DNA of 48,190 nucleotides. It comes from Deltaproteobacteria bacterium HGW-Deltaproteobacteria-1 (GTDB lineage: Bacteria > Desulfobacterota > Syntrophia > Syntrophales > Smithellaceae). Where the stretch lies: the NCBI GenBank assembly GCA_002840635.1, contig PHBN01000002.1, positions 1-48,190 of the forward strand, in the 5' to 3' direction. The stretch's first letter is position 1, and every line of letters starts with the position of its first letter. Below the pieces are notes generated by a model. That model was not told the origin of the DNA, did not search any database, and saw nothing but the letters and a program-made list of their open reading frames with translations. Below are positions 23,614 through 40,910 of this stretch, one piece after another. Both the position numbers and the translations under genes were made by a program.

Positions 23614-26600
23614 ATGAGCTTTAATGAAAATACTAGAGTGAAAATTCCTGCCATCCTACATTTGTGTAGATTGGGATACAATTACTTATCGCTTGCTAAT
23701 GCAAAACGAGATGAAACTACAAATATCTTCACTGATTTGTTTTCAGAAAGCATCAAACAAATAAATCCGGATGTTGAAGAAATTGATATTAAACGCTTAT
23801 TAGAAGATATCTCTCTGGCTCTGGATAATGAGGATTTGGGCGAAGCTTTTTACAAAATGCTTACAAACAGCTCAGGCATTAAGCTAATAGATTTTAACGA
23901 TTTCAAGAACAACTCTTTTCATGTTGTAACGGAACTGATCTGCAAAAATAGTGATGATGAATTTCGACCGGACATTACTCTTCTAATAAATGGAATGCCC
24001 CTTGTCTTTATCGAAGTAAAGAAACCCAATAATCACGAAGGAATTTTAGCAGAAAGAGACCGTATCAATATTCGTTTTAAGAATAAGAAGTTCAGAAAAT
24101 TTATAAACATTTCACAAGTACTCGTTTTTTCTAACAACATGGAATATGATCACCAATCAATAGAACCTATTCAAGGCGCATTTTATTCTTCAACTTCATA
24201 TAATGAAGCAAATTTTAATTGCTTCAGAGAAGAAGAACAATTTAATTTACAATACATTCTTAAACCAGAAGGTGATGAAATTGAAAACATTGTTTTAAAA
24301 GACAATAACCTTTCTGCAATTAAACACTCACCAGAGTTTATAACCAATAAAGAACCCGATACTCCGACAAATAGGATTTTAACGTCGCTATTTTCCAAAG
24401 TCCGGCTGTCAATGCTTTTAAAACACTGTATCGCCTATGTACGAGAAACAAATGGTCTGGAAAAACATATAATGCGTTACCCGCAACTATTTGCGACAAA
24501 GGCAATTGAGCAAAAAATTGATACCGGCACTAAAAGAGGCATTATCTGGCACACGCAAGGAAGTGGAAAGACAGCTCTCGCCTACTATAATGTTCATTAT
24601 TTAACAGATTATTTCCAGCAAAAGGGCATTATCCCAAAGTTCTATTTTATTGTTGATCGCATCGACCTGATGCACCAGGCTAAACGAGAGTTTGCCATAA
24701 GAGGTTTGTCGGTACACACTGTTGATTCCAAGGAAGCATTACTTAAGGATTTTAGACTGAAACAGGCAATTCATAACCTTTCCGGCGAACGGGAAATTAC
24801 AGTTGTTAATATCCAGAAATTTAAAGATGATACTGATGTGTTGAAGGTCAATGATTATGACATCAATATTCAGAGGATTTATTTCCTTGATGAAGTCCAC
24901 CGGAGTTACAATCCTACCGGCAGCTTTTTAGCAAATTTATATAATTCCGACAGGAATGCTATTCTTATAGGATTGACGGGTACGCCCTTGATATTGTCCG
25001 ACAGGAAATCGCGAGACACCTTTGGCGATTATATCCATAAATATTATTACAATGCGTCTATTGCCGATGGCTATACTTTGCGACTTATCCGGGAAGGAAT
25101 AGAGACTAATTATAAGATTCAACTTGCCCAGGCATTAAAAGAGGTTGAGGTTCTAAAGGGAGACGTGGATAAACGCATCATATACGCCCACGAGAGATTT
25201 GTCGAACCTATGCTTGATTACATTGTTCAGGACTTTATAAAAAGCAGAATCCGTTTCAATGACTACTCCATTGGTGGGATGGTAGTTTGCGATAGCGCAG
25301 AGCAGGCCAGAAAACTCTTTCAAATATTTATTGCCAAATACAATCCCCAGCAGCAAACAGTAGAAGAAGTATCAACCGAATATCTAAAAGTTGCTGAGCC
25401 ACCAGTTGAATACGGGTTATATCAGAATGATCAAAAAAGAAGATTAACAGCATCGTTGATATTATATGATGTTGGCTCGAAGGATGAACGCAAGGATGAA
25501 GTTGACGACTTTAAAGATGGGAAAATAGATTTGCTATTTGTTTACAACATGCTTCTTACCGGCTTCGATGCAAAAAGATTAAAGAAATTATATATTGGCC
25601 GCATAATCAAAGATCATAATCTGCTGCAAATGCTTACACGTGTCAATCGTCCCTATAAAAAGTTCAGATATGGATTTATAGTTGATTTTGCCGATATCCG
25701 CAAAGAATTCGACGCGACCAATAAAGCATATTTTGAAGAATTACAGGCCGAACTCGGCGATGAAATGAAAAACTATTCCAATCTCTTTAAATCAAAGGAA
25801 GAGATAGAAGAAGAAATCAGAGACATCAAAGAAAAGCTGTTTCATTATAATTTAAATAATGCAGAAATATTCTCTCAACAAATAAGCCTGATTGAAGACC
25901 GGGAGAAGGTTTTAGAAATTAAGAAAGCCTTGGAGAATGCCAGAAACCTATATAATATAATCCGGCTATACGGGTATTTTGAACTATTAGAAAAGGTGGA
26001 TTTCAAAAAGCTGAATCAGCTGCTTAATGAAACGGTGCGCCATCTGGAATTGTTGAACCTGAAAAATACTATTCAAAATAGTGCTGATACTGCCAATCTG
26101 CTGAATGTAGCATTGGAAAATGTAATTTTCATGTTCCGAAAAGTTTCCGAAGAAGAAATGATTATTGCCGACCAACTTAAAGATATGCTGCGTAAAGCAA
26201 GAGAGGCCTTAGGTGGTAATTTTGATCAGAAAGACCCTGTATTTGTTACCTTGTATGATGAGTTGAAAAGGCTTTTTGAAAAAAAGAATCTTGACGAAAT
26301 AACTCAGGAAGAAATGAAGCAGAATATTGGTTCTTTACGGCAGATATATGACAGAGTATCAGAGCTTAACCGCAAGAATAATCTATTGAAGGCAAAGTAC
26401 GAAAATGATGCTAAGTATGCTCGAATACATAAAAGGATTTTAGAAAAAGGAACAATCACAAAAAAAGAGAGTACAATTCACGAAACATTGATGGATATAA
26501 AAAAACAGACTGATGATATAGTGCTGCTCAATACTAAGGTACTGGAAAATGAAAGTTATTTTGCACATAGGCTGATGCCGATAGTGATTGATGGATTTAA

Positions 26601-26700
26601 TAAAGTTCGAGTAGAGCTGGAACCTGATTCAGCACGGTATATCAACACCTGTGTGGCAAAGGAATACATGAACGAATATCAGGGAGCTTCTGCATGGTAA
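23614..26700 (+). CDS. hsdR: type I restriction enzyme R subunit
   Basis: 1028 aa. The N-terminal nuclease region reads FRPDITLLINGMPLVFIEVKKP. The helicase motifs are TQGSGKT (motif I) and the DEVH box. The gene overlaps hsdM by 7 nt. Confidence 0.95.
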   Translation: MSFNENTRVKIPAILHLCRLGYNYLSLANAKRDETTNIFTDLFSESIKQINPDVEEIDIKRLLEDISLALDNEDLGEAFYKMLTNSSGIKLIDFNDFKNNSFHVVTELICKNSDDEFRPDITLLINGMPLVFIEVKKPNNHEGILAERDRINIRFKNKKFRKFINISQVLVFSNNMEYDHQSIEPIQGAFYSSTSYNEANFNCFREEEQFNLQYILKPEGDEIENIVLKDNNLSAIKHSPEFITNKEPDTPTNRILTSLFSKVRLSMLLKHCIAYVRETNGLEKHIMRYPQLFATKAIEQKIDTGTKRGIIWHTQGSGKTALAYYNVHYLTDYFQQKGIIPKFYFIVDRIDLMHQAKREFAIRGLSVHTVDSKEALLKDFRLKQAIHNLSGEREITVVNIQKFKDDTDVLKVNDYDINIQRIYFLDEVHRSYNPTGSFLANLYNSDRNAILIGLTGTPLILSDRKSRDTFGDYIHKYYYNASIADGYTLRLIREGIETNYKIQLAQALKEVEVLKGDVDKRIIYAHERFVEPMLDYIVQDFIKSRIRFNDYSIGGMVVCDSAEQARKLFQIFIAKYNPQQQTVEEVSTEYLKVAEPPVEYGLYQNDQKRRLTASLILYDVGSKDERKDEVDDFKDGKIDLLFVYNMLLTGFDAKRLKKLYIGRIIKDHNLLQMLTRVNRPYKKFRYGFIVDFADIRKEFDATNKAYFEELQAELGDEMKNYSNLFKSKEEIEEEIRDIKEKLFHYNLNNAEIFSQQISLIEDREKVLEIKKALENARNLYNIIRLYGYFELLEKVDFKKLNQLLNETVRHLELLNLKNTIQNSADTANLLNVALENVIFMFRKVSEEEMIIADQLKDMLRKAREALGGNFDQKDPVFVTLYDELKRLFEKKNLDEITQEEMKQNIGSLRQIYDRVSELNRKNNLLKAKYENDAKYARIHKRILEKGTITKKESTIHETLMDIKKQTDDIVLLNTKVLENESYFAHRLMPIVIDGFNKVRVELEPDSARYINTCVAKEYMNEYQGASAW

Positions 26701-28322
26701 CACAAGATTTTACAGTTGACACAAAAGAGCTGATTGATAACCTTAAGGGTGTTTGTGCATCTTACGGTTTGGGGAATGACGGGAATGAATTTAAAATCAT
26801 TACCCAGGTATTTCTCTATAAATTTATGAACGACAAGTTTGGCTATGAAGTGAAAGAATTAGATGCCAAATTAAAAAAATCCACGAATTGGGAACAGAAG
26901 ATTGCAGGCTATTCGGATAAACAATATGAGATGCTACTGTTAAAAATGAGTCCCGATAGCGCAAAACTGAAAAGAGAGCATTTTTTATCCAACCTTTTTA
27001 ACAATCAAAACAAAGAACAATATGCCAAGTTCTTTGATGATACGCTGCGGGATATAGCCATTTTTAATAATGAAATATTTTCAGTTAAGACCGGAACTGG
27101 CGCAAAAATTACTCTGTTTGACGAGTTAAGTAATTACATCACAGACAGCTCAAAGCGTGATGACTTCTGTCGCGCTCTCATTAACCATTTGATAAATTTT
27201 AGTTTTGAAAAAATATTCCATCAGAAATTTGACTTTTTCTCTACAATCTTTGAATACCTGATAAAAGATTATAATAAAGATGGTGGCGGGAAATATGCAG
27301 AATACTACACGCCCCATGCCGTTGCTAAAATCATGGCTTCAATTCTTGTAGATAAGCCGGTGAGTAATGTAACCTGTTACGACCCGGCGGCTGGTTCCGG
27401 GACATTGCTCATGAACCTTGCTCATGCCATCGGCGAAGATCGCTGTACCATTTACTCACAGGATATTTCGCAAAAGTCATCAAGCATGTTACGGTTAAAC
27501 CTGATTTTGAATAACCTCGTGCATTCCATCCCCAATATTATTCAAGGTAATACCCTGCTCACGCCGTATCATAAAACCGGCGACAAGCTGATGAACTTTG
27601 ATTACATTGTTTCTAATCCGCCCTTCAAAATAGATTTCAGCGATTACCGCGACGACTTGGATACAAAACAGAACCACAATCGCTTTTTTGCGGACATTCC
27701 TAAAATACCTAATAAAGATAAAGATAAAATGGCCATCTATTTGCTCTTTATTCAACATATAATGTTTTCACTCTCTGCTAAGGGGAAAGCCGCAATTGTT
27801 GTACCAACCGGATTTATTACAGCTCAAAGTGGGATTGAAAAAAAAATCCGGACAAAACTGGTAGAAGAAAAAATGCTTCGCGGTGTGGTCTCCATGCCGA
27901 GTAATATTTTTGCTACCACCGGCACCAATGTTTCGGTTCTTTTTTTGGATAAGGCCAATACCAAAGGCGATATTGTGTTGATGGATGCCTCTAAACTTGG
28001 CACAACTATTAAAGACGGGAAAAACCAGAAAACATTGCTCTCTCCGAATGAAGAAGACTTAATTGTTAAAACATTCCATGGACACAAAACTGTAGAAGAT
28101 TTTGCCGTCGTGGTTTCATATGAGCAGATTAAAGAGAAAAATTACTCGCTGAGTGCAGGCCAGTATTTTGATGTGAAGATAGAATATAAAGATATTACGC
28201 CGGACGAATTTGAGGCGAAGATGAATGGATATAAGAACAATCTCGATAAAATATTTAAAGAATCAAAAAGGCTTGAGAATGAGGTTAAGAAGCAGTTGGC
28301 GGGGTTGAAGTATGATTTATAA
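26694..28322 (+). CDS. hsdM: type I restriction-modification N6-adenine DNA methyltransferase subunit
   Basis: EYYTPHAVAKIM, DPAAGSGTLLM (AdoMet binding) and the catalytic motif VSNPPFK. Confidence 0.95.
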   Translation: MVTQDFTVDTKELIDNLKGVCASYGLGNDGNEFKIITQVFLYKFMNDKFGYEVKELDAKLKKSTNWEQKIAGYSDKQYEMLLLKMSPDSAKLKREHFLSNLFNNQNKEQYAKFFDDTLRDIAIFNNEIFSVKTGTGAKITLFDELSNYITDSSKRDDFCRALINHLINFSFEKIFHQKFDFFSTIFEYLIKDYNKDGGGKYAEYYTPHAVAKIMASILVDKPVSNVTCYDPAAGSGTLLMNLAHAIGEDRCTIYSQDISQKSSSMLRLNLILNNLVHSIPNIIQGNTLLTPYHKTGDKLMNFDYIVSNPPFKIDFSDYRDDLDTKQNHNRFFADIPKIPNKDKDKMAIYLLFIQHIMFSLSAKGKAAIVVPTGFITAQSGIEKKIRTKLVEEKMLRGVVSMPSNIFATTGTNVSVLFLDKANTKGDIVLMDASKLGTTIKDGKNQKTLLSPNEEDLIVKTFHGHKTVEDFAVVVSYEQIKEKNYSLSAGQYFDVKIEYKDITPDEFEAKMNGYKNNLDKIFKESKRLENEVKKQLAGLKYDL

Positions 28323-29574
28323 TGACTCAAAATATAACGCTGACTGGGAGGAAAAACCTCTTAATCGGTTAGGTGAATTCAGTAGAGGTAAATCAAAACA
28401 TAGACCAAGAAATGATAAAAAATTATTTGTGGATGGAAAGTACCCTTTTATTCAGACTGGGGAAATTAAAGCTGCAAATTTGTTCATTAATAGCCATTCA
28501 GAAATGTACAATGATTTTGGGTTAAAACAAAGTAGATTATGGGATAATAATACGTTATGTATTACAATAGCTGCAAATATCGCGGAAACTGCTTTACTCG
28601 GTTATCCAATGTGTTTTCCAGATAGTGTTGTTGGTTTCAACGCGTATCCAAACGAATCATCTGAACTATTCATGCATTATGTATTTACCTATATAAAAAA
28701 ATCGATTCAAAACTCTGCTTCTGGTAGTATTCAAGATAACATTAATATTGATTATTTAACGGCATTGAATTTTAGGATTCCCAAAAAGAAATATCAGGAT
28801 AAAATTGTCGCCGTTCTATATGCCCTCGATTCCAAAATCGAATTCAATAACCGAATTAATGCCGCGCTGGAAGCAATGGCTAAAACGTTATACGATTTTT
28901 GGTTTGTGCAGTTTGATTTTCCAGATAAGAACGGCATGCCATACAAATCCAGTGGCGGTAAAATGGTATGGCATGCGGAGTTGAAACGGGAGATTCCGGA
29001 GGGGTGGGAAGTTAAAAGTCTCAACGAATTAACAGAAGTAAGCAACGAACAGGTTAATCCTATAGCTATACCCGATAAAGAGTATAAGCATTATAGTATC
29101 CCAGCTTTTGATGCTTGCGGTTCATATAAATCTGAAAAAGGTATTGATATACTTAGTAATAAATTTAAAATTAGAAAAACAGATGTTCTCGTTTCTAAAT
29201 TGAACCCATGGTTTAGTCGGGTAATTTATGCAACCGATGAATCAGATTTGATTTCATCGACTGAATTTGTTGTATGGCGTGAAAAAAATATAGGCAAGAA
29301 AAACTACCTTTTCATGATTGCTCGTGATGCTTCTTTCGTTACCTATTGCACTCAATCTGCCGCTGGCACTTCAAATAGTCATAAGAGAGTTACTCCAAAA
29401 GTCATGATGAAATATCGTGTTGTTTACAATGAACAAGTAGCGGAATCATTCGGTATTATTTTAGGCTCGACTATTAAGATGTATGCAAAGAATCAAATCG
29501 AAACTAATAATCTTTCCGAACTCCGGGATTGGCTTCTCCCCATGCTAATGAATGGCCAGGTTAAAGTTAAATAG
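28312..29574 (+). CDS. hsdS: type I restriction-modification specificity subunit
   Basis: 420 aa with two target-recognition halves separated by a conserved helical spacer (IVAVLYALDSKIEFNNRINAALEAMAKTLYDFWFVQFDFP). A second spacer lies at the C-terminus (LSELRDWLLPMLMNGQV). Confidence 0.9.
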   Translation: MIYNDSKYNADWEEKPLNRLGEFSRGKSKHRPRNDKKLFVDGKYPFIQTGEIKAANLFINSHSEMYNDFGLKQSRLWDNNTLCITIAANIAETALLGYPMCFPDSVVGFNAYPNESSELFMHYVFTYIKKSIQNSASGSIQDNINIDYLTALNFRIPKKKYQDKIVAVLYALDSKIEFNNRINAALEAMAKTLYDFWFVQFDFPDKNGMPYKSSGGKMVWHAELKREIPEGWEVKSLNELTEVSNEQVNPIAIPDKEYKHYSIPAFDACGSYKSEKGIDILSNKFKIRKTDVLVSKLNPWFSRVIYATDESDLISSTEFVVWREKNIGKKNYLFMIARDASFVTYCTQSAAGTSNSHKRVTPKVMMKYRVVYNEQVAESFGIILGSTIKMYAKNQIETNNLSELRDWLLPMLMNGQVKVK

Positions 29575-29865: not shown

Positions 29866-30244
29866 TCCTATCACCTCTCTTTCCCCGGCATAAATTAAAA
29901 TATACCCTTAGGGGAAAGATGGTCTTGGGATTTCGCTTGACGAAAACTTCCTGTCTATGCTACGTCTCAATTAAATCTAAGCTAAAGCCTTATGGGCAAT
30001 TTCAACCGGAACCCCAGTTCTCTGCAAAGACTGGGGTTTTCTTTGTAAAAAATCATACCACTACATATAGTGCTTGTCAATAGCATGGATACAATATATT
30101 GTAAGCTTGTATAATATATTGATAATATTCAACATTTATATTATTCCTAAGTATATAATTTATTTGTATATATAATATTTAATTATATTCTTGACATATT
30201 ATATAAAATTATTTAACATGTTTTCCAAACAGAAAGGAGGCTCT

Positions 30245-31372
30245 ATGACAAGAGAGGAACTTGCTTTACGTCTTAAAGCCGCCCGTGAAACAACAGGTTT
30301 GTCATTAGGTGATGCAGCGACCCGTCTTGGATTTCCAAGTTATCAAACACTGAGTAGTATCGAAAATGGGCAAAGAGAGGTAAAGGTTTCTGAACTGGCC
30401 CGTTTTGCCCGGATTTATTTTTACAATCTGAGTGACTTCCTGGCGGAACAAGCATCGCAGTCGGAATGCCCTATTCTGTGGCGTAATCCACCTGAAGCCG
30501 AAGAGCAGAAGAAGCAAGCACAGCGAGAGATATTCTCCTTGTGTGAGCAATATCATGTGCTGGAGAAGTTGCTCGGCATCAAGTCGGAAAAGGGATTTAT
30601 GGAAGTAACGCGCGAATCCATAAATTCCAATCAAGCCATTAATCGTCTGGCAAAGGAAACGAGGAATCTTCTGGGATTAGGTCAAAGACCGGCATGTTCG
30701 CTCCAGAAGGTTTTGGAACAGGATTATGGCGTAAAGATTCTCTACTATCCTCTTGCTTATGGATCGGCCGCGTCCATGGTTCATCCTGACATGGGTAAAG
30801 CGGTTGTGATCAATGCCAACGAAGTGTCGTGGCGGCAGAATTACGATCTGGCGCACGAACTTTTCCATCTGATTCTGTGGAAAGTTTTTTCTCTGGATGA
30901 AATGAACGATACGCTCTTCTTTTCGGATGTGGAAAAAAAGGCTGATCGTTTTGCCTCCATGCTGCTTTTGCCGGAAGATGAGGTCCGGCGTGAACTGGAG
31001 CAGGTCATGGCAAACAATAAGCAGGTCAATTTTTCCGATATTGTGGACATTGCCATGGACTTCGGTGTTTCCGCCAAGGCCCTGGTATATCGTCTTGCCT
31101 CTGTCAATTTGATTAAATGGGAAATGGCCGATACGCTGGCACATGATGAGGAACTGGCGGAAATCAGCAGGCAGAAAAGAAAACAGGAACAGCAAACAAA
31201 GCAGTCCGAACGTTTTAATGCACTGGCCGTGCGCTGCCTGCGAAAAGGATTCATTTCACGGGGGAAATTCGCCGAACTGATCAACATTGACCGCAGCGAT
31301 ATAGATGATCATATCGAAAACATGGGCATGATGGAATCGGAGGGGAAAGCGGTTGAAGTTATGGCTTCTTGA
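30245..31372 (+). CDS. XRE-type HTH fused to an ImmA/IrrE-family zinc metallopeptidase domain
   Basis: The preferred start is at 30245 (AAAGGAGG upstream). The HTH reads LALRLKAARETTGLSLGDAATRLGF. The HExxH motif lies in NYDLAHELFHLILW. Confidence 0.85.
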   Translation: MTREELALRLKAARETTGLSLGDAATRLGFPSYQTLSSIENGQREVKVSELARFARIYFYNLSDFLAEQASQSECPILWRNPPEAEEQKKQAQREIFSLCEQYHVLEKLLGIKSEKGFMEVTRESINSNQAINRLAKETRNLLGLGQRPACSLQKVLEQDYGVKILYYPLAYGSAASMVHPDMGKAVVINANEVSWRQNYDLAHELFHLILWKVFSLDEMNDTLFFSDVEKKADRFASMLLLPEDEVRRELEQVMANNKQVNFSDIVDIAMDFGVSAKALVYRLASVNLIKWEMADTLAHDEELAEISRQKRKQEQQTKQSERFNALAVRCLRKGFISRGKFAELINIDRSDIDDHIENMGMMESEGKAVEVMAS

Positions 31373-31865
31373 CGCCGATATCCTGATCGATTTCTTATCT
31401 CGTGATCTGCTTGATAAACTGGTGGAGAAGCACGAGATCTATGCGGCAAGTTCTGTGATCGATGAAGTCAGGTACTTCAAACGCAATATTGAAAAGATCG
31501 ATGCCAGGTTCCGCGAAAGGTACGTCCAAACAGGTCTGATCAAAGAGGTGAGCGCCACTGCCGAAGAGGCTTCATGTCTTTTGAACCATTTCACTAACGA
31601 TTTCAAATTTACCATACATGCAGGCGAAATCGAGTCCCTTGCCGTATTGATCAGGCAGACGGAATTAATATTCTGTACCTGCGATGCGGCCGCTATCCGA
31701 ACTCTTCCGCTTCTTGATCTTACTGAGCGAGGAATCTCCGCCGAAAAACTCCTCAGACAATCGGGATTGTATAAACCGGGCCTTAAAGAAAGACATACCG
31801 AAGAGTATTTCAAGAGCAATATTTCCATCGGACGTGAGTACAAAATTTATAATCTTAAAAGCTAA
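31353..31865 (+). CDS. putative PIN-like nuclease domain protein
   Basis: It overlaps the upstream gene by 20 nt and has a non-ATG (TTG) start. Acidic motifs are LLDADILID, HAGEIESLAV and IFCTCDAAAI, spaced as in PIN domains. Evidence is motif-level only. Confidence 0.55.
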   Translation: MKLWLLDADILIDFLSRDLLDKLVEKHEIYAASSVIDEVRYFKRNIEKIDARFRERYVQTGLIKEVSATAEEASCLLNHFTNDFKFTIHAGEIESLAVLIRQTELIFCTCDAAAIRTLPLLDLTERGISAEKLLRQSGLYKPGLKERHTEEYFKSNISIGREYKIYNLKS

Positions 31866-32308: not shown

Positions 32309-33298
32309 ATGATAGAAAAGATCGAACCCATCCCCAAATATATTCCTGAATCGCTCCGTCTCGCAGCGATTCAGAGAAAGCTCATTCCGTTTATTGGCGC
32401 AGGGGTCTCTCAACTCGGAGGCTGCCCAAACTGGTGTGAATTTGCCGATGCCTCTCTTAATTTTTTTGTTGAAAAAGGGAAGTTGAATCATGCCCAACTT
32501 GCCCAAATTGCGCCTCTTTCTTCTCGGGTGAAGTTGTCTGTGGCTCTGGAGCTTGAAAAGCAGCACAATCTTCGCATCGACTTCAAGAAATTGCTGACAC
32601 CGTCCGGGGCCAAGAAAAAAATCGGGAATGAGGTTTATGCGAACCTCTCAAGACTGGCAACTACTTTTGTTACGACAAATTATGATGATTGGTTGGACCA
32701 AATTCCACCAGAACCTTTGCGGGCTGATGATCTGGCACCTTCTCAGTCACTGCCACTTGGCACAACACGCCATTGCTTTTACAAACGCAACGATATCTCT
32801 GTTGAGAACCTGGACGTCCCGAATGCAGTGTTCCACATACATGGTTCTATCCGTGATCGAGATAGCATGGTGATAAGGACTGTCGACTACCTCGATTGTT
32901 ATTCAAGCCATAGAATTGATGGAAAAGAGAATCACGAAAATGCGTTCCTGACATTTCTACAAACGCTTTTCCAGTTGAAGAATGTCCTATTCATTGGTTA
33001 TGGCCTTAATGAGATGGAAGTCCTTGAGTACATTGTTCAGAAGGGGATCCGGAAGCCAAAAACTGATGAGGAACCAAGACACTACGTTCTGCAGGGTTTT
33101 TTCACGCACGACTTGGAACTCGCACGCAGTTTGGAGAGCTATTTTCATGAGTTCGGGATCGGGTTACTTCCATTTTCACGTGACGACTGTAATTGGGATC
33201 AACTGATTGCTGTCATTGACTACCTTGCCCGGGAGATTCCCCCTGGTCCACCATTGGCTTTGCCAAAACGCCTCGAAATGGAGGAGTTACTATCGTGA
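32309..33298 (+). CDS. SIR2-like (SIR2_2-type) NAD-utilising domain protein
   Basis: The motifs are LIPFIGAGVSQLGGCPNW, FVTTNYDDWLD (N124), VFHIHGSI (H178) and VLFIGYGLNEMEV, in the order and spacing typical of defence-associated SIR2 domains. Confidence 0.85.
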   Translation: MIEKIEPIPKYIPESLRLAAIQRKLIPFIGAGVSQLGGCPNWCEFADASLNFFVEKGKLNHAQLAQIAPLSSRVKLSVALELEKQHNLRIDFKKLLTPSGAKKKIGNEVYANLSRLATTFVTTNYDDWLDQIPPEPLRADDLAPSQSLPLGTTRHCFYKRNDISVENLDVPNAVFHIHGSIRDRDSMVIRTVDYLDCYSSHRIDGKENHENAFLTFLQTLFQLKNVLFIGYGLNEMEVLEYIVQKGIRKPKTDEEPRHYVLQGFFTHDLELARSLESYFHEFGIGLLPFSRDDCNWDQLIAVIDYLAREIPPGPPLALPKRLEMEELLS

Positions 33299-36135
33299 GT
33301 CTGGTATTAATGACAAAGCAAACGTTGTTTATTAAGCGGATGACCGAAAATCAAGAACAAGCGAAATGGGGTTTTGAGATTCTACTCAAGCAGCAAAATT
33401 TCGCTGAATATTTTGGCCACTTAAAAGATGCTGGCCTTTTTGCTCCAGAACATAATTTGGATCCGATACAATCCGAGGACAGCAGGTTTGTGCGAATCCC
33501 CTATTGGAGTGCGCTTGACTATTTGGTGGCGGTTGCGAAGCAGGCTGGGGCCAACAAAGACATCCCGTTAGCACGAAAGGTTATGGACGTCATTCGCACC
33601 GTAAGTGGCTTTTGCGGTTCCGATGGTAGAAGTCGTGACAATTATCATACCTATATGAAATTTGCCGAAATTCTCGGTCTTCTGCCAACGGCTTCAATTG
33701 AAAAAGAAGACCTCAGTCTTATCCCGATCTGGCTGAGCAGCAAATACGACCGAGGAATGGTTGGTCATTCCCTTGATATAGGAGCACTAAGGCAGTTGCT
33801 AGCGAGCGAAGCGCCTGACGACTGGGAAAAAGCCGTCATAATACTTGACTATTGCACGGCTATTCTTTGGGCTGAGGAAAAAGGCGTTAGTAAAGGGCGG
33901 AAGAAGCCGGTAGCAGTTATTGAGGGCTACTGGTTTAAGGAACTGATCAAACACCATGTAGATATCTTCGGCGCTAAGACAGGCAGAGAAGCGGCTCAGA
34001 TATTCCGTAATAGGCTTTCGGTAATTTTTGGTGAAGAATTCGGCGATCTTCCGACCTACTTGAGCCGACCAGCTGTTGAGGATCATCCGCAAAACCATTC
34101 GTGGGATGAAGTTGTCAACGGAATTGTCGAAGGACTTCGAGATGTCTTATTGTCCTGGATTGAAAACAAGTCAGAGAGTGCTTCTGCATTTGTTGAAGAG
34201 ATCCTTGAAGATAAAGACGAGATGGTTCGTCGGATCGCCATTTATATTCTTGCTCAGCGATGGTCTGTGCTGAAAAGTCTCTATAAGAATATTATTAGCA
34301 CCCACCTCTTTGATTCGAGAAATATCCACGAAACATACCACTTACTCAAAGATCGCTTTTCCGAATTCAGCGATTCGGAAAAGGCCTTAACACTTGAGGC
34401 GATTCGCCAGTTGTCACCACCAGATCATGAAGATCCGGAGCGGCTTCTGAAGCACACGCAGCGAAACTGGCTGTCAGCAATCGCGGGAAAGGGATATGAG
34501 CCAGCTGACAGCTGGTTTAGGGAACTCGATACTGACCCGAACATAGGCAGACTGTCAGAGCATCCTGATTTTCACTCCTATATGGAGACATGGTCTGGTC
34601 CAGGCCCTTCACCCTATTCAACCCAAGAACTGCTTGCGTTTGCAGAGGACGGCAGCTTAATAAAAAGATTAACCGAGTTTCAGCAATCCAGTGATTGGCA
34701 AGGCCCGTCAACCCCATCAATTAAAGCTCTCGTTGATACACTTGAGGAAATTGTAGGAAGCAATCCCCGAAAATTTCTTCAGCTCCTGCCGGCATTCCTT
34801 GATGCCAAAAGGCCATATCAGTATGGTATCATCAATGGTTTCAAAAGTATCTGGGATAAACCTAAGGATAAACAGCAGGATCTTGACTGGGACGTCGTAT
34901 GGGGCCGATTAATTGATTTTTTTGTACAGTTGCTGGATAAACCTGATTTCTGGACAGAAGAAGTAGTCAATGATCATGATTTAACCCCCACTCGTGACTG
35001 GATTCCACCAATAATTGCTGAATTTCTGCATGCTGGTACGAGAGATGACAGTAAAGCCTATCCACCAAAATTTCTTACGAGTACGTTTGCGTTAATAAAA
35101 ATTTTATTAGAGAAATTGGAGCCCGTTGATGATGCGAAAGAGGATGCCATGTTTCAGGCAATCAACTCATCCAAGGGTAAGGCGATTGAAGCACTTTTTA
35201 GCCATACACTCAGGGTGTGCCGCATCAGCGACAAAGAGCGGGGAGATCATACGGAAGCTTGGAAAGATATCAAGCCAACCTTTGATGTAGAACTGGCAAA
35301 ATGCGAGAATACCAATTACGAATTCTCCACTCTGGCGGCGGCTTATCTTACAAATATAGATTACATTAGCCACGACTGGCTGTTGCCAAGTATTGATAAG
35401 ATTTTCCCTAAAGACTTCCCGGAAAATTTTGCATGTGCCATAGACGGATTGGCTTATGCATCAGCATCTCGATCAATCTATCAGCTGTTACTTGAACATG
35501 GAGTGCTGGACAGAGCTTTGCGTCTAAATCGGACTCGAAAGCAAGCTCACAAAAAAATCATTGAACGGATCGCGCTTGCTTATCTCTTGGGCGATGAAAC
35601 ACTGACTTCGCCGAGGTTATCTTATCTGTTCGAAGGGGACCAGATTGAGGATCTTCAAGATGCCATCGGGTTTTTTTCAAATGCAAGAATGCAGGAGTTG
35701 ACGAAAGAACAAATCGAACGGATCATCTGTTTTTGGGAAAAATGCGTGACTTGGGCGGAAGCTTTGACCGAACCGCCGAAATTGCTTCTTTCGAGATTAA
35801 GCCTTTTGATTTGTTACATATCTGTACTTACAGATAGAGAAATCAGACTTTTGATGGCGGTAGCACCGTATATAGATGTTGAATATCGTGCCGACACGTT
35901 TATCGAAGAACTCGATCGCTTGCTTGAGAAAGATCCTGCAACGGTTAGCCTTGTGTTAGGAAAGGCTCTCGAAACATATCAGCCGGACTTTGACTATGAA
36001 GATCGACTGAAGAATCTTCTGAAAAAATTGGCTCAAAGAGGGAGACGCGACGATGTTCTTCGTTACATTGATCGTGTAAGAAGACTTCCTGGAGTTGACG
36101 AGTTATTCAAACAATTGACCGGCGTGTCGATATAA
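33295..36135 (+). CDS. 946-aa protein of unknown function, apparently all-helical repeat-like
   Basis: The GTG start overlaps the SIR2 gene stop (GTGA at 33295-33298), which implies translational coupling. I see no catalytic or NTP-binding motif. The sequence is rich in amphipathic helix-like segments. Confidence 0.75.
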   Translation: MSLVLMTKQTLFIKRMTENQEQAKWGFEILLKQQNFAEYFGHLKDAGLFAPEHNLDPIQSEDSRFVRIPYWSALDYLVAVAKQAGANKDIPLARKVMDVIRTVSGFCGSDGRSRDNYHTYMKFAEILGLLPTASIEKEDLSLIPIWLSSKYDRGMVGHSLDIGALRQLLASEAPDDWEKAVIILDYCTAILWAEEKGVSKGRKKPVAVIEGYWFKELIKHHVDIFGAKTGREAAQIFRNRLSVIFGEEFGDLPTYLSRPAVEDHPQNHSWDEVVNGIVEGLRDVLLSWIENKSESASAFVEEILEDKDEMVRRIAIYILAQRWSVLKSLYKNIISTHLFDSRNIHETYHLLKDRFSEFSDSEKALTLEAIRQLSPPDHEDPERLLKHTQRNWLSAIAGKGYEPADSWFRELDTDPNIGRLSEHPDFHSYMETWSGPGPSPYSTQELLAFAEDGSLIKRLTEFQQSSDWQGPSTPSIKALVDTLEEIVGSNPRKFLQLLPAFLDAKRPYQYGIINGFKSIWDKPKDKQQDLDWDVVWGRLIDFFVQLLDKPDFWTEEVVNDHDLTPTRDWIPPIIAEFLHAGTRDDSKAYPPKFLTSTFALIKILLEKLEPVDDAKEDAMFQAINSSKGKAIEALFSHTLRVCRISDKERGDHTEAWKDIKPTFDVELAKCENTNYEFSTLAAAYLTNIDYISHDWLLPSIDKIFPKDFPENFACAIDGLAYASASRSIYQLLLEHGVLDRALRLNRTRKQAHKKIIERIALAYLLGDETLTSPRLSYLFEGDQIEDLQDAIGFFSNARMQELTKEQIERIICFWEKCVTWAEALTEPPKLLLSRLSLLICYISVLTDREIRLLMAVAPYIDVEYRADTFIEELDRLLEKDPATVSLVLGKALETYQPDFDYEDRLKNLLKKLAQRGRRDDVLRYIDRVRRLPGVDELFKQLTGVSI

Positions 36136-36179: not shown

Positions 36180-39100
36180 ATGGAACCACAAAATATGGGA
36201 ATAGATTGTTTACATTCAATTCTTGTTGGTCTCAAGCCGACAGGACCGACCGGATTTGAAGGATTAGTTCGAGAACTATTGGAATGTTGGACAGGACAAA
36301 GATTTCGTTTGGCACGCTCAGGAAGCCAATCAGGCAAAGACGCAACTTCAGATTCTTCTTTCGGTACTGTGATTGCCGCTGAGATGAAACGGTATGAGCA
36401 ACAATCTACTCTCAGCTTGCGCCAGCTTCTGGGTGGATTTTCTGAAGCCATACAAACCTTTCCCGATCTTGATCTTTGGGTTTTAGCAGCAACAAAGGAA
36501 ATTGGTGACAAAGAAGCCGAGGGGCTTAAAAAGCAAGCAGAACTTGCAGGTATTGAGAATCTAATCCTGGATTCGAGGGCTGATGGCAGTGGTTATCTTG
36601 AAACGTTCTGTGCAAGATATCCAGATGTTATTAAGGATTATTTCCGCAGGAACATTCCGGGCAGCGATATTGAAGACTTGGACTCAAGAATCAGATGTAT
36701 CCAGAATCATGCAAATTACGAAAAATTTGTTAGACAACTGGATGATATACTGAATGCCGCGGTTTTCGGCTTCAACGGTACACGTAATAGCGCATTTCAG
36801 TGGTTGAATAGCCATATTGATACTCGAACAGAATCAATGGCCGCATTTCTTCAAGACATTGGATTGCGTGACACAAATCGCCAAACGCCTATTATCCGTA
36901 CTCGCCTGAATATCCAATTCGATTCCTGGTGGGAAAACAGAAATGCGGATTCGGCGCATGCTGTCCTTCTTGGGGAAGAGGGTACTGGAAAAACCTGGGC
37001 TGTTATGGCTTGGCTGGCAAACAAGTTCGACGACGAAGCCAGTCCTATTCTCCTGCCCATTACGTCGGCTCAATTATCGGAGACCACAGACCTTTACACA
37101 CTTATCAGTGAGACGTTGATAAAACGATGCGGGAAAACGGATACTTTCTGGAAGAAGCGTCTGGACGGATGGATGAGTCATCCGAGAACCAATGGGCCAT
37201 TATTTCTTCTTTATCTCGATGGCTTAAATGAGAAACCCAACTTTCTCTGGCGCAATTTAATTGCACAAGCTAATTCCCGCGATTGGTATGGACGCATAAC
37301 CATATTCATGACCAGCCGCAAGGAATTTTATAAGACAAAGGTGGCTTCTAGGGCTTCAGGCGTTAGAGAAATCGAAACGACTGGCTACGATAACACTGAA
37401 CTTAACCAGGAATTGGATCGTGCCGGTATATCAAGACCGACCGTAATCCCAGAAGATCTGCGATCCTTAATTCGGAAACCACGATATTGCGATTTGGCAC
37501 TGCAATATTTTAAGAATCTTTTGGTAAGCGGTGACCTTACAGTTGAACGCCTACTTTATCAAGATTATAAAGATAGAGTGGAACGTAAGCTAAATCATCC
37601 CGTTATGGACGATGATTTCAATCAGATACTATGTGATCTGGCAAAGAAATACATGTCTGGAGCGCGTGTTTTTGGCAAAGCAGATCTTGTGACGATTCTT
37701 CCAGGATCGGATGAAGGCGATACCATTCTACAGGAAATTATTGATGGCGGTCTCTTGGTAAGGACGAATCAGTTATCGGCACCTTATCGCGTGGAACCCC
37801 GGAGGCTTGTCTATGGATTGGGAATGCTTCTTGCCGATCATGTAGCTAATGAACCATGCGTATCAATTGACGAATATACCAATGCAGCACAAAAATGGTT
37901 GGAACCGCAATCGGATATGGAACTGAAGGTTTCTGTAGCTGGCGCAGCAGCATTTATAAGCATCGTGGATAAGAATTTTCCGGTGAACGCCAGGCGGGCA
38001 CTGCTAAGGCTTTGGATCGGATCGCGCAACATGACGGACATACAGGAGAGGGCTGTGACTGCGTATCTGCCTGATTGTGCGTCTGATATCGTGGAGGTAG
38101 CCAATGTTTTTTGGAGCACGGGGCAAGACAATGGCATTGCGCAGGAGAGGTTAGCGGCGGCCTTCCTAAAACACCGTGATGACTCAAAGGTCAAGCCCAT
38201 ACTGGCCGCCGCCTGCAAACGTTGGATGAGTTATGTCAATATTAATGGACACCCATTGGAGCGGGGGGCAAACGATGCAAATATAGATGAACTTAGGCAG
38301 GCCTTATTCAATCGTTTAGGTAAGAAAGTTGCCAGCGGAGATAATACGACTTTCTATGGTCGGGATTTTTTAATTACCGAAGATGACAATCTGTTACGTA
38401 TGGCCAGGTTCGCAATGTTCCTCATATCTGCGGGAGACAGGCTACCCTTCATAGAGTCTTTCTTTCAATGGGCCATTTCTAGACGTTTAATGGGTCGATA
38501 TTCGGAATTTGATGAGGCCGCATGGGTTCTACGTCTTTCAGATGAAGACCTCTGGCCCGCTTTTGGGACTAATTTAATGCAAATGGCCATGTCTGAGGAT
38601 GACACGCTTAAGAGGGCAGCTAGCCTTCTTTCAACATGCATAGGGAGCCGAGCTTCAAATGAACTAGTTGAAAGCCACCTTCAAGGCCTTTCTTCAGCGT
38701 CAGCACTGCAAATAGAATACAAAAAAGACCCTTACGCCAGTATTTTTGCCTTGCCTTCCCGCGACGACTGCGAACCATGCATGGCCAGAGATGATCTTTC
38801 AATATGGCACATTGTACAGAAAATCACTAATTACATCAATGATCCGGAGGTTGCAGCTCCGGAAGGATTCATCGGCCGATTGCGTGAAACAGTGTCATTG
38901 CTCCCAGTCACGGGTTATTGTGCTACGTTCGGCCATACCATTGAAGATCATCAAATCGAGACCTATCTCCCGGTTCTCGCGCGTTTTGCCTATCAAAACT
39001 TAGCAGAGTTGATGCGGAAGACCGTACATACGCTGGATCAAAGAAATGAAGAGGGCGTCCGCCAACTTCTGATCAATATTCCCGAATTCGGAATTGTCCT

Positions 39101-40910
39101 ACAGGACCCAGAGCTTGCTATTCTCGACAAGTTTCTGGCGATATACCACCGAAAGGTATGTATATGGCCGAATCATCGTGACGGTGTACCTCTTGATAGC
39201 GAAATATTTGCCGAGTCGCGTGGGGCACTTGCCCGCATCATGCATATGACGGCCGATGAGTCCGCTGTGTTTATTCTGAATCGGCCAGAGAAGGCTTTGG
39301 ATTTGGAATCTCTTGGCCGCTGGTTTCAGCCTTTACCCGCAGAAACAATCAGAGATTTTTTATCGCGATTTTTAACAGAATCGTCAACTGTTACTCAGCA
39401 TAGAATCCTGTGGCTGCTATATAATGCAAAGCCTGTTCTTTCCGATACCCATAGGTATATATTGATCCAATGGATGGAAAGCAGGTGTAACGTCCTTGAA
39501 TATTGTGCTTTTCAATTTGCGTGGTTATCCGGTGACCAAAACCTCGTCGATCATGTCCTCCAGCAAGAGGGCTTCTTGCACCCTGAAACGAGCAGAATTG
39601 ACACTTGGGTTGCAAATATTTATAAAAGATATGGTCGTGAAGTACCTTTTCAAAAACTAGCTCAACGTCTTCCGCTGGAATGGGTCGGCACTATTATCTG
39701 TGGTGATTCATGTCGATCATGTGATGTTCAACTTTTTGCCAATCTCCTAGATGAAGTCTGGGAACTTATTGCTCAGGATGAGAAATTAGATGATATGGAA
39801 TTTCTATCGCCACAGGTGGAAGAAGATCAAGAAGCCGGTGCTACTTTCTTCCACTATAGAGAGCCGACATCTGACCGTTCGATTCGCTATGTCTCGTTAT
39901 TCACGTCTTGGCGTAGTGGAAGATCGGAAGAAAATAATGTCAACCCCAATTTTTCTTTACAGGATTCTCCCGAAGACTTTGCCACAAGACAACATACCTT
40001 CAATAAGCAAATCGAGGTTTTGGTGCAGGATGAAAAAACGCGCTGGCGGTATTGTCAATTAGACACAAACGTATTGACTCGTGTTTGCCGAGACCATGTC
40101 GAAATGGTTAATAAGTGGATTGATGCAGTTTTAGAAGGCAATTCTAAAAAAGATCTCCTCCTTATTTGTAGTGGTTTTTACCAATCCTTAAGTGCTGCTC
40201 TTTTCACCATAGGACACCCCCAGGGCGTTCTTCTTTGGAGAAAAATCCGCGAGCATCCACATCAAGTCAACTTTAATAATAAGCATGCGGGAGCTGATTG
40301 GATGACTTGTCTACCTTTTGCCGCATTGCCTTCCGCAGACGCAGACAATACCGCAGTTGAACTACTGGATAACTGTCACAGTGATATAGGTCTTTTGGAA
40401 CTAGCCACTGTCGCCTGTGCGTATAAACGACAAACATGGATTCTGGAAAAGACTGAGGATCTTATTGGCAAGCCACAGTTATGGCTCAGGGCAAAAGGTC
40501 TCATGTTGCTTTCCCTAGCTGATATGGATTGTGAAATTGACAGACTCATACAATCTTCTGATATTGGAGGAACATGGGTAGAAAAACTGCTCCCACAAAT
40601 CGAATATTTGCACGATAGAAACCGATGGGCACGCCACTGGTATAACCGTTTTCTGACAGTTGCCGAAAATGATGAAGCCTTCGCTTGTTTCCTGCTTGTC
40701 CTAAAGTGCATAGATAGGCGATTCCACCTTTGGATGGATGAACTTGATGAGGAAGCACAAAAGTCTGGTGCCATGGATGAAAAAAGAAAGAAATTCCGGA
40801 TCACCAATAATGATCAAATTGAGAGGGCAATTAAAGAAAATGAAAAAGAGTTAGACAATCATTTTTTGACGTTGAAATTTGAGAAAGGACAAGTGCTACC
40901 ATTTTTATGA
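36180..40910 (+). CDS. 1576-aa protein: N-terminal Mrr-like PD-(D/E)xK nuclease, then STAND/NACHT-like P-loop NTPase, then a ~1200-aa C-terminal region
   Basis: FEGLVRELLECW...SGKDAT...VIAAEMKRY (D54, E68-x-K70) resembles the Mrr/restriction-endonuclease core. Walker A is LLGEEGTGKTW (nt 36972-36995). Walker B is LFLLYLDGLNE (around nt 37218-37232), which resembles the hhhhDGLDE motif of NACHT/STAND proteins. Confidence 0.8.
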   Translation: MEPQNMGIDCLHSILVGLKPTGPTGFEGLVRELLECWTGQRFRLARSGSQSGKDATSDSSFGTVIAAEMKRYEQQSTLSLRQLLGGFSEAIQTFPDLDLWVLAATKEIGDKEAEGLKKQAELAGIENLILDSRADGSGYLETFCARYPDVIKDYFRRNIPGSDIEDLDSRIRCIQNHANYEKFVRQLDDILNAAVFGFNGTRNSAFQWLNSHIDTRTESMAAFLQDIGLRDTNRQTPIIRTRLNIQFDSWWENRNADSAHAVLLGEEGTGKTWAVMAWLANKFDDEASPILLPITSAQLSETTDLYTLISETLIKRCGKTDTFWKKRLDGWMSHPRTNGPLFLLYLDGLNEKPNFLWRNLIAQANSRDWYGRITIFMTSRKEFYKTKVASRASGVREIETTGYDNTELNQELDRAGISRPTVIPEDLRSLIRKPRYCDLALQYFKNLLVSGDLTVERLLYQDYKDRVERKLNHPVMDDDFNQILCDLAKKYMSGARVFGKADLVTILPGSDEGDTILQEIIDGGLLVRTNQLSAPYRVEPRRLVYGLGMLLADHVANEPCVSIDEYTNAAQKWLEPQSDMELKVSVAGAAAFISIVDKNFPVNARRALLRLWIGSRNMTDIQERAVTAYLPDCASDIVEVANVFWSTGQDNGIAQERLAAAFLKHRDDSKVKPILAAACKRWMSYVNINGHPLERGANDANIDELRQALFNRLGKKVASGDNTTFYGRDFLITEDDNLLRMARFAMFLISAGDRLPFIESFFQWAISRRLMGRYSEFDEAAWVLRLSDEDLWPAFGTNLMQMAMSEDDTLKRAASLLSTCIGSRASNELVESHLQGLSSASALQIEYKKDPYASIFALPSRDDCEPCMARDDLSIWHIVQKITNYINDPEVAAPEGFIGRLRETVSLLPVTGYCATFGHTIEDHQIETYLPVLARFAYQNLAELMRKTVHTLDQRNEEGVRQLLINIPEFGIVLQDPELAILDKFLAIYHRKVCIWPNHRDGVPLDSEIFAESRGALARIMHMTADESAVFILNRPEKALDLESLGRWFQPLPAETIRDFLSRFLTESSTVTQHRILWLLYNAKPVLSDTHRYILIQWMESRCNVLEYCAFQFAWLSGDQNLVDHVLQQEGFLHPETSRIDTWVANIYKRYGREVPFQKLAQRLPLEWVGTIICGDSCRSCDVQLFANLLDEVWELIAQDEKLDDMEFLSPQVEEDQEAGATFFHYREPTSDRSIRYVSLFTSWRSGRSEENNVNPNFSLQDSPEDFATRQHTFNKQIEVLVQDEKTRWRYCQLDTNVLTRVCRDHVEMVNKWIDAVLEGNSKKDLLLICSGFYQSLSAALFTIGHPQGVLLWRKIREHPHQVNFNNKHAGADWMTCLPFAALPSADADNTAVELLDNCHSDIGLLELATVACAYKRQTWILEKTEDLIGKPQLWLRAKGLMLLSLADMDCEIDRLIQSSDIGGTWVEKLLPQIEYLHDRNRWARHWYNRFLTVAENDEAFACFLLVLKCIDRRFHLWMDELDEEAQKSGAMDEKRKKFRITNNDQIERAIKENEKELDNHFLTLKFEKGQVLPFL

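Follow-up and report, generated by a model that had tools for sequence, protein, structure and literature searches.

A probable Avs-type nuclease-NACHT receptor with a HEAT-like sensor, encoded beside a split Dsr1 system in a Smithellaceae metagenome-assembled genome

Antiviral STAND (Avs) proteins and bacterial NACHT proteins (bNACHT) share a layout in which an effector is followed by a STAND NTPase core and a sensor. Lee et al. (Nature 2026, PMC13581612) sorted proteins from NCBI nr into 589 STAND clades and 684 sensor clusters; many of these clades are not related to defence, and most of the tested Avs8-24 proteins came from Enterobacteriaceae. In SeAvs7, a nuclease (~1-225) is joined to a STAND NTPase with K292, D358 and R395 and to a sensor at residues 561-1523. 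Avs7, which senses the major capsid protein, has this bilobed sensor in common with Dsr1, and the sensor occurs behind other effectors and in STAND-less proteins as well (PMC13581612). Among the bacterial NACHT proteins, clade 6 (bNACHT25/32; Kibby et al. 2023) combines an Mrr-like restriction endonuclease (REase) with NACHT and NCH1, and the Mrr-like REase-NACHT protein bNACHT25 degrades DNA on infection, an activity which is abolished by D48A (PMC12169576; 10.1101/2022.07.19.500537). Here, we describe a gene of this general type, which is located at positions 36180..40910 on the plus strand of contig PHBN01000002.1 from Deltaproteobacteria bacterium HGW-Deltaproteobacteria-1 and whose product is referred to as P0001. 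The window that was analysed is the whole 48,190-bp contig of this 83%-complete metagenome-assembled genome (MAG); the gene is present there in single copy.

P0001 is an intact three-part protein consisting of a nuclease, a NACHT-type STAND NTPase and a HEAT-like alpha-solenoid sensor. Judged from conserved motifs, structure models and analogy with described systems, it is probably a self-contained, single-polypeptide antiviral receptor of the Avs/bacterial NACHT (NLR-like) kind. The open reading frame (ORF) of 1576 aa contains no internal stop, as seen from the ORF list and its translation, and in public gene calls the identical protein begins at M6, five codons downstream, and has 1571 aa. 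In detail, a PD-(D/E)xK (Mrr-like) nuclease core (residues ~10-160, 36207..36659), a helical linker (residues ~161-235, 36660..36884), the NTPase with its NBD-HD1-WHD modules (residues ~236-555, 36885..37844) and the C-terminal sensor (residues ~556-1576, 37845..40907) follow each other on the plus strand. This order of effector, STAND core and sensor was already recognised in a preliminary description of the locus and is borne out by the motifs, by NACHT matches in 14 of 31 relatives and by a fold match to EcAvs4. The same description called the protein unusually long, which does not hold: the EcAvs4 chains comprise 1534-1541 modelled residues and the sensor of SeAvs7 extends from residue 561 to 1523 (PMC13581612), and P0001 is an uncharacterised protein of a well-known receptor type with a size that is normal for Avs proteins. 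The ~1200 residues assigned to the part behind the NTPase are correct when counted from the Walker B region, but the sensor measures ~1,020 residues (556-1576) once HD1 and WHD are attributed to the NTPase.

Direct database searches with P0001 gave nothing usable, as Pfam returned sub-threshold AAA_7 and AAA_22 matches only (residues 235-319) and a phmmer search of the PDB sequences yielded nothing. Therefore, the protein could be assigned to a family only by means of its homologues. A word-indexed search led to 62 clusters of collinear, full-length homologues with lengths of ~1,450-1,600 aa and identities of 22-72%. Conservation was measured in an alignment of 48 sequences as well as in 138 full-length relatives, and 31 relatives were each scanned individually for known domains. 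Furthermore, a sensor profile built from eight sequences was used for an exhaustive hidden Markov model search of 1.84 billion proteins, clustered at 50% identity, and revealed 1,306 sensor-bearing cluster representatives at E<=1e-3, of which 531 also pass E<=1e-30. Most members of this sensor family have a length of 1,450-1,620 aa, with the sensor beginning at residue ~555-570. At least 90% conserved or invariant in the 48-sequence alignment are E27, G48, Q50, G52, D54, E68 and K70 of the nuclease part and R240, G265, G268, G270, K271, W273, D347, G348, N350, E351, R380, P434 and R435 of the NTPase. The identical residues of both modules are at the top of the conservation ranking in the 138 full-length members.

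By motif and model, the N-terminal domain is a predicted PD-(D/E)xK nuclease with E27, D54 and E68-x-K70 as putative catalytic residues, which are invariant in 10 diverse relatives and near-invariant in 138. The family alignment served to model residues 1-650 (predicted local distance difference test, pLDDT, 85.6; predicted template modelling score, pTM, 0.81). The resulting topology is alpha-beta-beta-beta-alpha-beta (H26-38, E42-44, E55-57, E64-70, H80-93, E97-104), and the first ~130 residues of the model follow the restriction-endonuclease fold in the order of their elements, where the conserved acids and the lysine fall into the elements that this fold would lead one to expect. E27 is located in helix 1, D54 ahead of strand 2 and E68-x-K70 within strand 3. 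The Mrr-like nuclease proposed in the preliminary description agrees with these conserved residues and the modelled fold, and the Pfam family Mrr_cat matches two of the 31 relatives at ~1e-3.

The NTPase carries the Walker A motif GEEGTGKT at residues 265-272 (36972-36995), Walker B at residues 343-351 (37206-37232), the sensor-1 arginine R380 in a 'TSR' motif, P434-R435 and R240. Of the features that are typical of STAND proteins, GEEGTGKT, D347 and R380 are invariant or near-invariant, and the order of strands and helices in the AlphaFold2 (AF2) model is that of NBD-HD1-WHD. Pfam NACHT (PF05729) matches 14 of the 31 relatives with a best value of 2.1e-7 and NPHP3_N matches two, and the homologue from Sphingobium bears the PGAP name 'NACHT domain-containing protein'. 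The Walker motifs are homologous rather than chance matches, a possibility that had been raised beforehand, because they are invariant or near-invariant in the 48 aligned and the 138 full-length relatives and because relatives match Pfam NACHT.

In a Foldseek search of the PDB with the model of residues 1-650, EcAvs4 (AVAST type 4, 8DGF) came first with E 3e-12 over ~644 columns that span nuclease and NTPase, which makes it the closest structural counterpart of this part of P0001. It was followed by NLRC4, NLRP9/14/7, NOD2, CED-4 and Apaf-1. Like P0001, EcAvs4 joins an Mrr-like PD-(D/E)xK nuclease and a STAND NTPase to a large helical sensor in one polypeptide of ~1,550 residues. However, its identity to P0001 is 13-14%, PADLOC gives no Avs4 match and the folds of the two sensors differ; that P0001 shares the trigger of EcAvs4 by homology is unlikely. 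NLRC4, NLRP9, NOD2 and CED-4/Apaf-1 have in common with P0001 the NBD-HD1-WHD fold (Foldseek E 1e-7 to 1e-6) and the logic of effector, NOD and sensor. In contrast to P0001 with its enzyme effector, HEAT-like sensor and the Walker B sequence DGLNE, animal NLRs use a CARD or PYD adaptor and a sensor of leucine-rich repeats or WD40 repeats.

The sensor was modelled with confidence as an all-alpha solenoid, broken up by short beta elements at three points and by a single disordered loop (AF2, residues 560-1576, pLDDT 91.0, pTM 0.90), which answers the structure prediction suggested in the preliminary description for the C-terminal region. That description also noted the lack of a TPR consensus; what appears instead, besides the solenoid model, is a match of the P0001-family profile to designed alphaRep (HEAT-like) repeats at ~1045-1180 (E 1.7e-7), and Pfam HEAT_2 matches one of the 31 relatives. 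In the PDB, the sensor model matches nothing beyond generic HEAT/ARM solenoids, for example Kap121, importins and CAND1, at TM values of at most 0.26, and the sensors of Avs2, Avs3, Avs4, Avs5 and DSR are absent from these matches. No sensor match for the P0001 family was found in PADLOC, NCBIfam, Pfam or the PDB, in line with the separate sensor specificity that had been suspected before. In addition, the NACHT-associated C-terminal domains of Pfam match none of the 31 relatives, and a fold search of the viral models in BFVD with the sensor gave no meaningful match.

Apart from one insert, the sensor is nearly as conserved in the 138 relatives as the NTPase, and one may speculate that this is compatible with the recognition of a conserved fold. 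The insert (residues ~1191-1290, 39750..40049, plus strand) includes a beta-hairpin and a disordered loop and represents the least conserved part of P0001, with 0.91 bits compared to 1.4-1.8 elsewhere; BLAST alignments are interrupted there in many relatives. Low pLDDT values occur in the model blocks 671-710 (protein ~1230-1270) and fall below 50 at model positions 689-701. In a relative from a Geobacter MAG (L004:10001-14494, 1497 aa), ~80 residues are missing precisely within the insert (P0001 1194-1274), so the insert is dispensable for an intact reading frame. Close to the C-terminus, a conserved motif block (residues ~1481-1518, 40620..40733, plus strand) reads N-x-W-A-R-H-W-Y ... D1512-R-R1514 ... 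W1518, with W1487, D1512 and R1514 near-invariant in both the 48- and the 138-sequence sets. Speculatively, this block with W1487, D1512 and R1514 could serve as an autoinhibitory contact or as a surface that binds a trigger or ligand.

The family was then found to exchange effectors on this sensor. A complete backbone of linker, NTPase and sensor is present in 160 of the 200 family proteins inspected, and in four of these 160 (P0242, P0252, P0254 and P0256; 1,722-1,780 aa) the nuclease core is replaced by a CHAT caspase-like protease with Pfam scores of 2e-14 to 8e-21. The CHAT proteins align to P0001 from ~190 onward, the individual starts ranging from ~187 to 199, and hence the linker, which is modelled as helices H164-223 in P0001, is kept even where the nuclease is exchanged. 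In two further clusters of 1,140-1,149 aa, a TIR domain is fused directly to the sensor and the NTPase is missing: P0302 (L026:2726-6175) and P0334 (L025:2743-6165) are complete ORFs and are not preceded by a NACHT gene. These fusions are a STAND-independent use of the sensor that parallels the case of Avs7 and Dsr1, and a like exchange of effectors, with STAND-less forms among its products, has been reported for Avs7 (PMC13581612). Since effectors are exchanged on a constant sensor, the solenoid can be regarded as the module for signal recognition.

Eight other clusters of ~1,030-1,150 aa (P0199, P0203, P0205, P0221, P0232, P0271, P0273 and P0330) begin at the position of P0001 residues 437-459, at the border of HD1 and WHD. 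They may represent a split-gene variant, in which a nuclease-NBD-HD1 protein is accompanied by a WHD-sensor protein, rather than random fragments.

Effector exchange also bears on the idea that P0001 is an NTP-dependent enzyme of restriction type, which would recognise modified or foreign DNA directly by a type IV or McrBC-like logic. Mrr-family nucleases are classic modification-dependent enzymes, restriction-modification (R-M) systems are adjacent both in the window and at the locus of one relative (L010), and when only the nuclease domain was used for a profile search of the PDB, the single match was a marginal one to AspBHI (E 0.83). On the other side, the NTPase belongs to the STAND/NACHT type and not to the McrB-type GTPases/AAA+ proteins, and profile, Pfam and fold searches detected no DNA-binding domain in the sensor. 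Moreover, the sensor also drives effectors that have no action on DNA, the CHAT protease and TIR, which argues that the signal it detects does not depend on DNA cleavage. A restriction enzyme of this kind is highly improbable, and an infection sensor of the Avs/bacterial NACHT type accounts for P0001 as the preferred reading.

At the level of sequence profiles P0001 lies outside Avs1-5. None of the PADLOC profiles for Avs1-5 matches it, the Avs2 model hits three of the 31 relatives weakly (5.6e-6) and in the NTPase only, and in a PDB profile search the only Avs sequence reached was Avs2 at E 0.39, with Avs4 not reached at E<1. Neither PADLOC nor the PDB profile search thus placed the protein in one of these clades, a comparison which the preliminary description had put forward. 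Membership in Avs7 was considered because P0001 adjoins a Dsr1 system, because Avs7 and Dsr1 share a sensor and because its proportions are near those of SeAvs7. It was rejected: P0001 and the neighbouring Dsr1 sensor subunit (P0002) share no BLASTP match, hhalign of the P0001 sensor profile (48 sequences) with a Dsr1-sensor alignment (31 sequences) gave a probability of 0.1-0.4%, and the PADLOC Dsr1 model matches none of the 31 relatives. SeAvs7 resembles P0001 in its near-identical proportions, in a PD-(D/E)xK nuclease that is, or in P0001 would be, activated by oligomerisation and in a sensor that is reused with other effectors and in STAND-less forms. It differs in having a sensor homologous to that of Dsr1, which the sensor of P0001 is not, and a nuclease described as Cap4-type, where that of P0001 looks Mrr-like.

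A further question is whether P0001 belongs to another family that has already been characterised, either one of Avs8-24 or bNACHT clade 6 with bNACHT25/32; the mechanism discussed below would then hold, nothing about it would be new, and the trigger may be known already. According to the published descriptions, bNACHT25/32 resemble P0001 as single genes with an Mrr-like PD-(D/E)xK DNase ahead of NACHT and a catalytic aspartate near the N-terminus (D48 compared to D54), so that bNACHT25 shares the order of effector and NACHT. Unlike P0001 with its ~1,020-residue HEAT-like solenoid, bNACHT25 ends in NCH1 and senses infection via the host protein DnaJ. The family has members in NCBI, among them WP_228167503.1 (Sphingobium yanoikuyae), WP_149201754.1 (Azospirillum oryzae), KAF1083679.1 and MCX5831014.1, which makes it likely that the tables of Lee et al. 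include it, if only as a cluster without a name. Against such a membership stand the results given above, namely the missing PADLOC match of P0001 with faint Avs2 NTPase matches in only three of 31 relatives, the lack of an NCBIfam model, the 31 relatives without a NACHT-associated C-terminal Pfam domain and the dissimilarity of the model to the solved sensors of Avs2/3/4/5. While most tested Avs8-24 come from Enterobacteriaceae, no enterobacterial record matching the family was found among 72,556 plasmids. A full-text literature search revealed no mention of six family accessions, and the family is accordingly not cited by accession in the searchable literature. Membership in a characterised family is therefore regarded as unlikely. 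For the more far-reaching proposition, namely that the P0001 family is an uncharacterised Avs-type lineage outside Avs1-24 and the tested bNACHTs, with a portable HEAT-like sensor of ~1,000 residues and a novel trigger (a phage protein or a perturbed host factor), we consider the case to be evenly balanced.

The distribution of the gene is patchy. It is absent from all 40 related genomes, 24 of which belong to the same genus, and was found in three of 401 genomes sampled across the phylum. Carriers of the family include Desulfobacterota-type MAGs, Geobacter, Terriglobia, Nitrospirota (Manganitrophus plasmids), Rifleibacterium and Parabeggiatoa as well as alphaproteobacterial plasmids of Azospirillum, Rhizobium, Sphingobium, Sphingomonas, Methylobacterium and Ensifer. 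The family is thus mostly located in uncultured anaerobes (Smithella, Desulfomonilia and Geobacter-type MAGs) and on alphaproteobacterial plasmids. Sphingobium yanoikuyae is a cultured and tractable carrier. A tblastn search of 50,697 phage genomes detected no copy. In an IMG/VR uncultivated viral genome of 41.4 kb (L024:7860-12719), a full-length relative with 36% identity resides inside a prophage, between genes for tail tube, tail and a pectate-lyase-like fibre on the one hand and a CI-like repressor on the other, which is a typical moron or defence position.

A profile of 15 close sequences led to seven genome loci, of which two (L005 and L006) are shorter and have little flanking sequence. 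The five long loci, from Smithella, Desulfomonilia, Rhodospirillaceae, Geobacter and Rifleibacterium MAGs (L001-L004 and L007), were set against the window in tblastn and all-against-all BLASTP searches, and no neighbour gene within 10 kb is conserved among them. Three further loci (L009-L011), inspected by means of their called genes and Pfam annotations, show no conserved neighbour either. Patchy spread, settings in defence regions, plasmids and a prophage, and the lack of a conserved partner are what marks a single-gene defence system that moves horizontally.

In the window, the P0001 gene is preceded by two genes on the plus strand (32309..36135), and the preliminary description had considered P0001 as a possible regulatory hub for them. 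The first (32309-33298) encodes a 329-aa SIR2 subunit that matches Pfam SIR2_2 and positions 4-283 of the PADLOC Dsr1 model (1.2e-48); the second (33295-36135) encodes the 946-aa sensor subunit P0002, which covers positions 313-1200 of the same 1,227-position model (3.3e-107). Since both together cover the full-length model, they constitute a two-gene (split) Dsr1, separate from P0001, and their reading frames overlap by 4 nt (GTGA). Split Dsr1 is common: 378 homologues of the sensor subunit were found, with about 900-951 aa among the matches listed. In five loci with sensor-subunit homologues of 75-84% identity (L014-L018), a SIR2 gene of 327-329 aa lies directly upstream in every case, again overlapping by 4 nt. 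The genes downstream of the pair are unrelated (MarR-like, small ORFs, a 750-aa ORF), and none of them has a length of ~1,570 aa.

A role of P0001 as third component or hub of this pair is suggested by the co-directional genes, which are separated by a 44-nt gap without a terminator-like site, and the sensor shared by Avs7 and Dsr1 makes a functional link imaginable. Still, the upstream pair alone reconstitutes a full-length Dsr1 and recurs without a NACHT gene. Seen from the other side, no SIR2 or Dsr1 homologue was detected by tblastn/BLASTP within 10 kb of the P0001 relatives (29-67% identity) at L001-L004 and L007, nor any such gene among the called genes and Pfam annotations at L009-L011. 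The hhalign probability of below 1% between the P0001 and Dsr1 sensor profiles points in the same direction. Viewed from both sides, the loci show no joint occurrence of the SIR2, 946-aa and NACHT genes outside the window. A three-gene system of SIR2, 946-aa and NACHT proteins is rejected on the basis of this neighbourhood comparison, and we give very little credence to P0001 as a hub. For the annotation, the region of 32.3-40.9 kb consists of two independent defence systems, the split Dsr1 and the Avs-like nuclease-NACHT gene.

For P0001 as a self-contained antiviral receptor, a course of events can be drawn up in which trigger binding, oligomerisation, DNA cleavage and abortive infection are inferred from EcAvs4, SeAvs3, SeAvs7 and bNACHT25. 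In the resting state, the ~1,020-residue solenoid, probably together with the C-terminal block, would keep NTPase and nuclease as an inactive monomer. This inhibition would be released when the solenoid is bound by a protein derived from the phage or by a host protein that infection has altered. The NACHT module would then bind ATP with the participation of K271, D347 and R380 and subsequently oligomerise. Oligomerisation would bring together the N-terminal Mrr-like PD-(D/E)xK domains to form an active DNase (E27, D54, E68, K70), which would cut DNA indiscriminately and thereby abort the infection.

This proposal builds on direct observations, that is, on domain composition and folds, conserved catalytic residues, the absence of a conserved partner gene, the defence and mobile settings, the patchy spread and the effector exchange. 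Several points weigh against it. P0001 alone has no above-threshold match in Pfam, PADLOC or NCBIfam, and the nuclease is assigned by motif, predicted fold and weak profile matches only. Walker B reads D347-G-L-N350-E351 (LDGLNE, 346-351) as opposed to the NACHT signature D[GAS]hDE: the small residue and the last glutamate of the signature are retained, and the first acidic position is a near-invariant asparagine across the P0001 family (37221-37226 context). Finally, the 44-nt gap between the Dsr1 sensor gene and P0001 holds neither a terminator-like site nor a promoter above chance, and co-transcription of P0001 with Dsr1 by read-through is possible in this genome. Read-through of such kind is common in defence islands. 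P0001 could also be a STAND protein without any role in defence, such as a signalling or transcription regulator or a housekeeping protein, given that many STAND clades fall into this category (PMC13581612). The conserved nuclease effector, the patchy spread, the settings in defence islands, plasmids and a prophage and the lack of a helix-turn-helix (HTH) output domain speak against such a function, to which next to no weight can be given.

If confirmed, the family would add one more sensor to the NLR-like repertoire of bacteria, from uncultured anaerobes and alphaproteobacterial plasmids, environments which have been the source of few tested Avs proteins. With a confident model and its reuse with three effectors, including a TIR domain without NTPase, the sensor is a good subject for the discovery of triggers. 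Furthermore, with this family one can ask how a single sensor is able to serve outputs that depend on STAND and outputs that do not, a situation recently demonstrated for Avs7 and Dsr1.

The P0001 gene forms the end of an island in the window that comprises a type I R-M operon, an HTH-M78 gene and the split Dsr1, and is followed by TetR, HlyD and ABC transporter genes. The R-M operon with hsdR (1028 aa), hsdM (542 aa) and hsdS (420 aa) occupies positions 23614-29574 in a segment of lower GC content (~0.35-0.39). Between this operon and the split Dsr1, at 30191-31865, a 393-aa fusion of HTH_31/HTH_3 and Peptidase_M78 (ImmA/IrrE-like) overlaps with a 170-aa ORF without a Pfam match. The neighbours of relatives in other genomes are genes of defence or of mobile elements: AbiEi/AbiEii and HipA were found at one locus (L009), an MmeI-type R-M system and a PIN gene at another (L010), and a RepA/ParA plasmid (L011) carries a CBASS system with HORMA, SMODS and SAVED in addition to AAA_21. 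IS66 elements are neighbours of a further relative (L012), and on the plasmid of Sphingobium yanoikuyae (L013, 12607-14384) the neighbours of WP_228167503.1 are a VapBC pair and a pair composed of an AAA ATPase and an RloB-domain protein.

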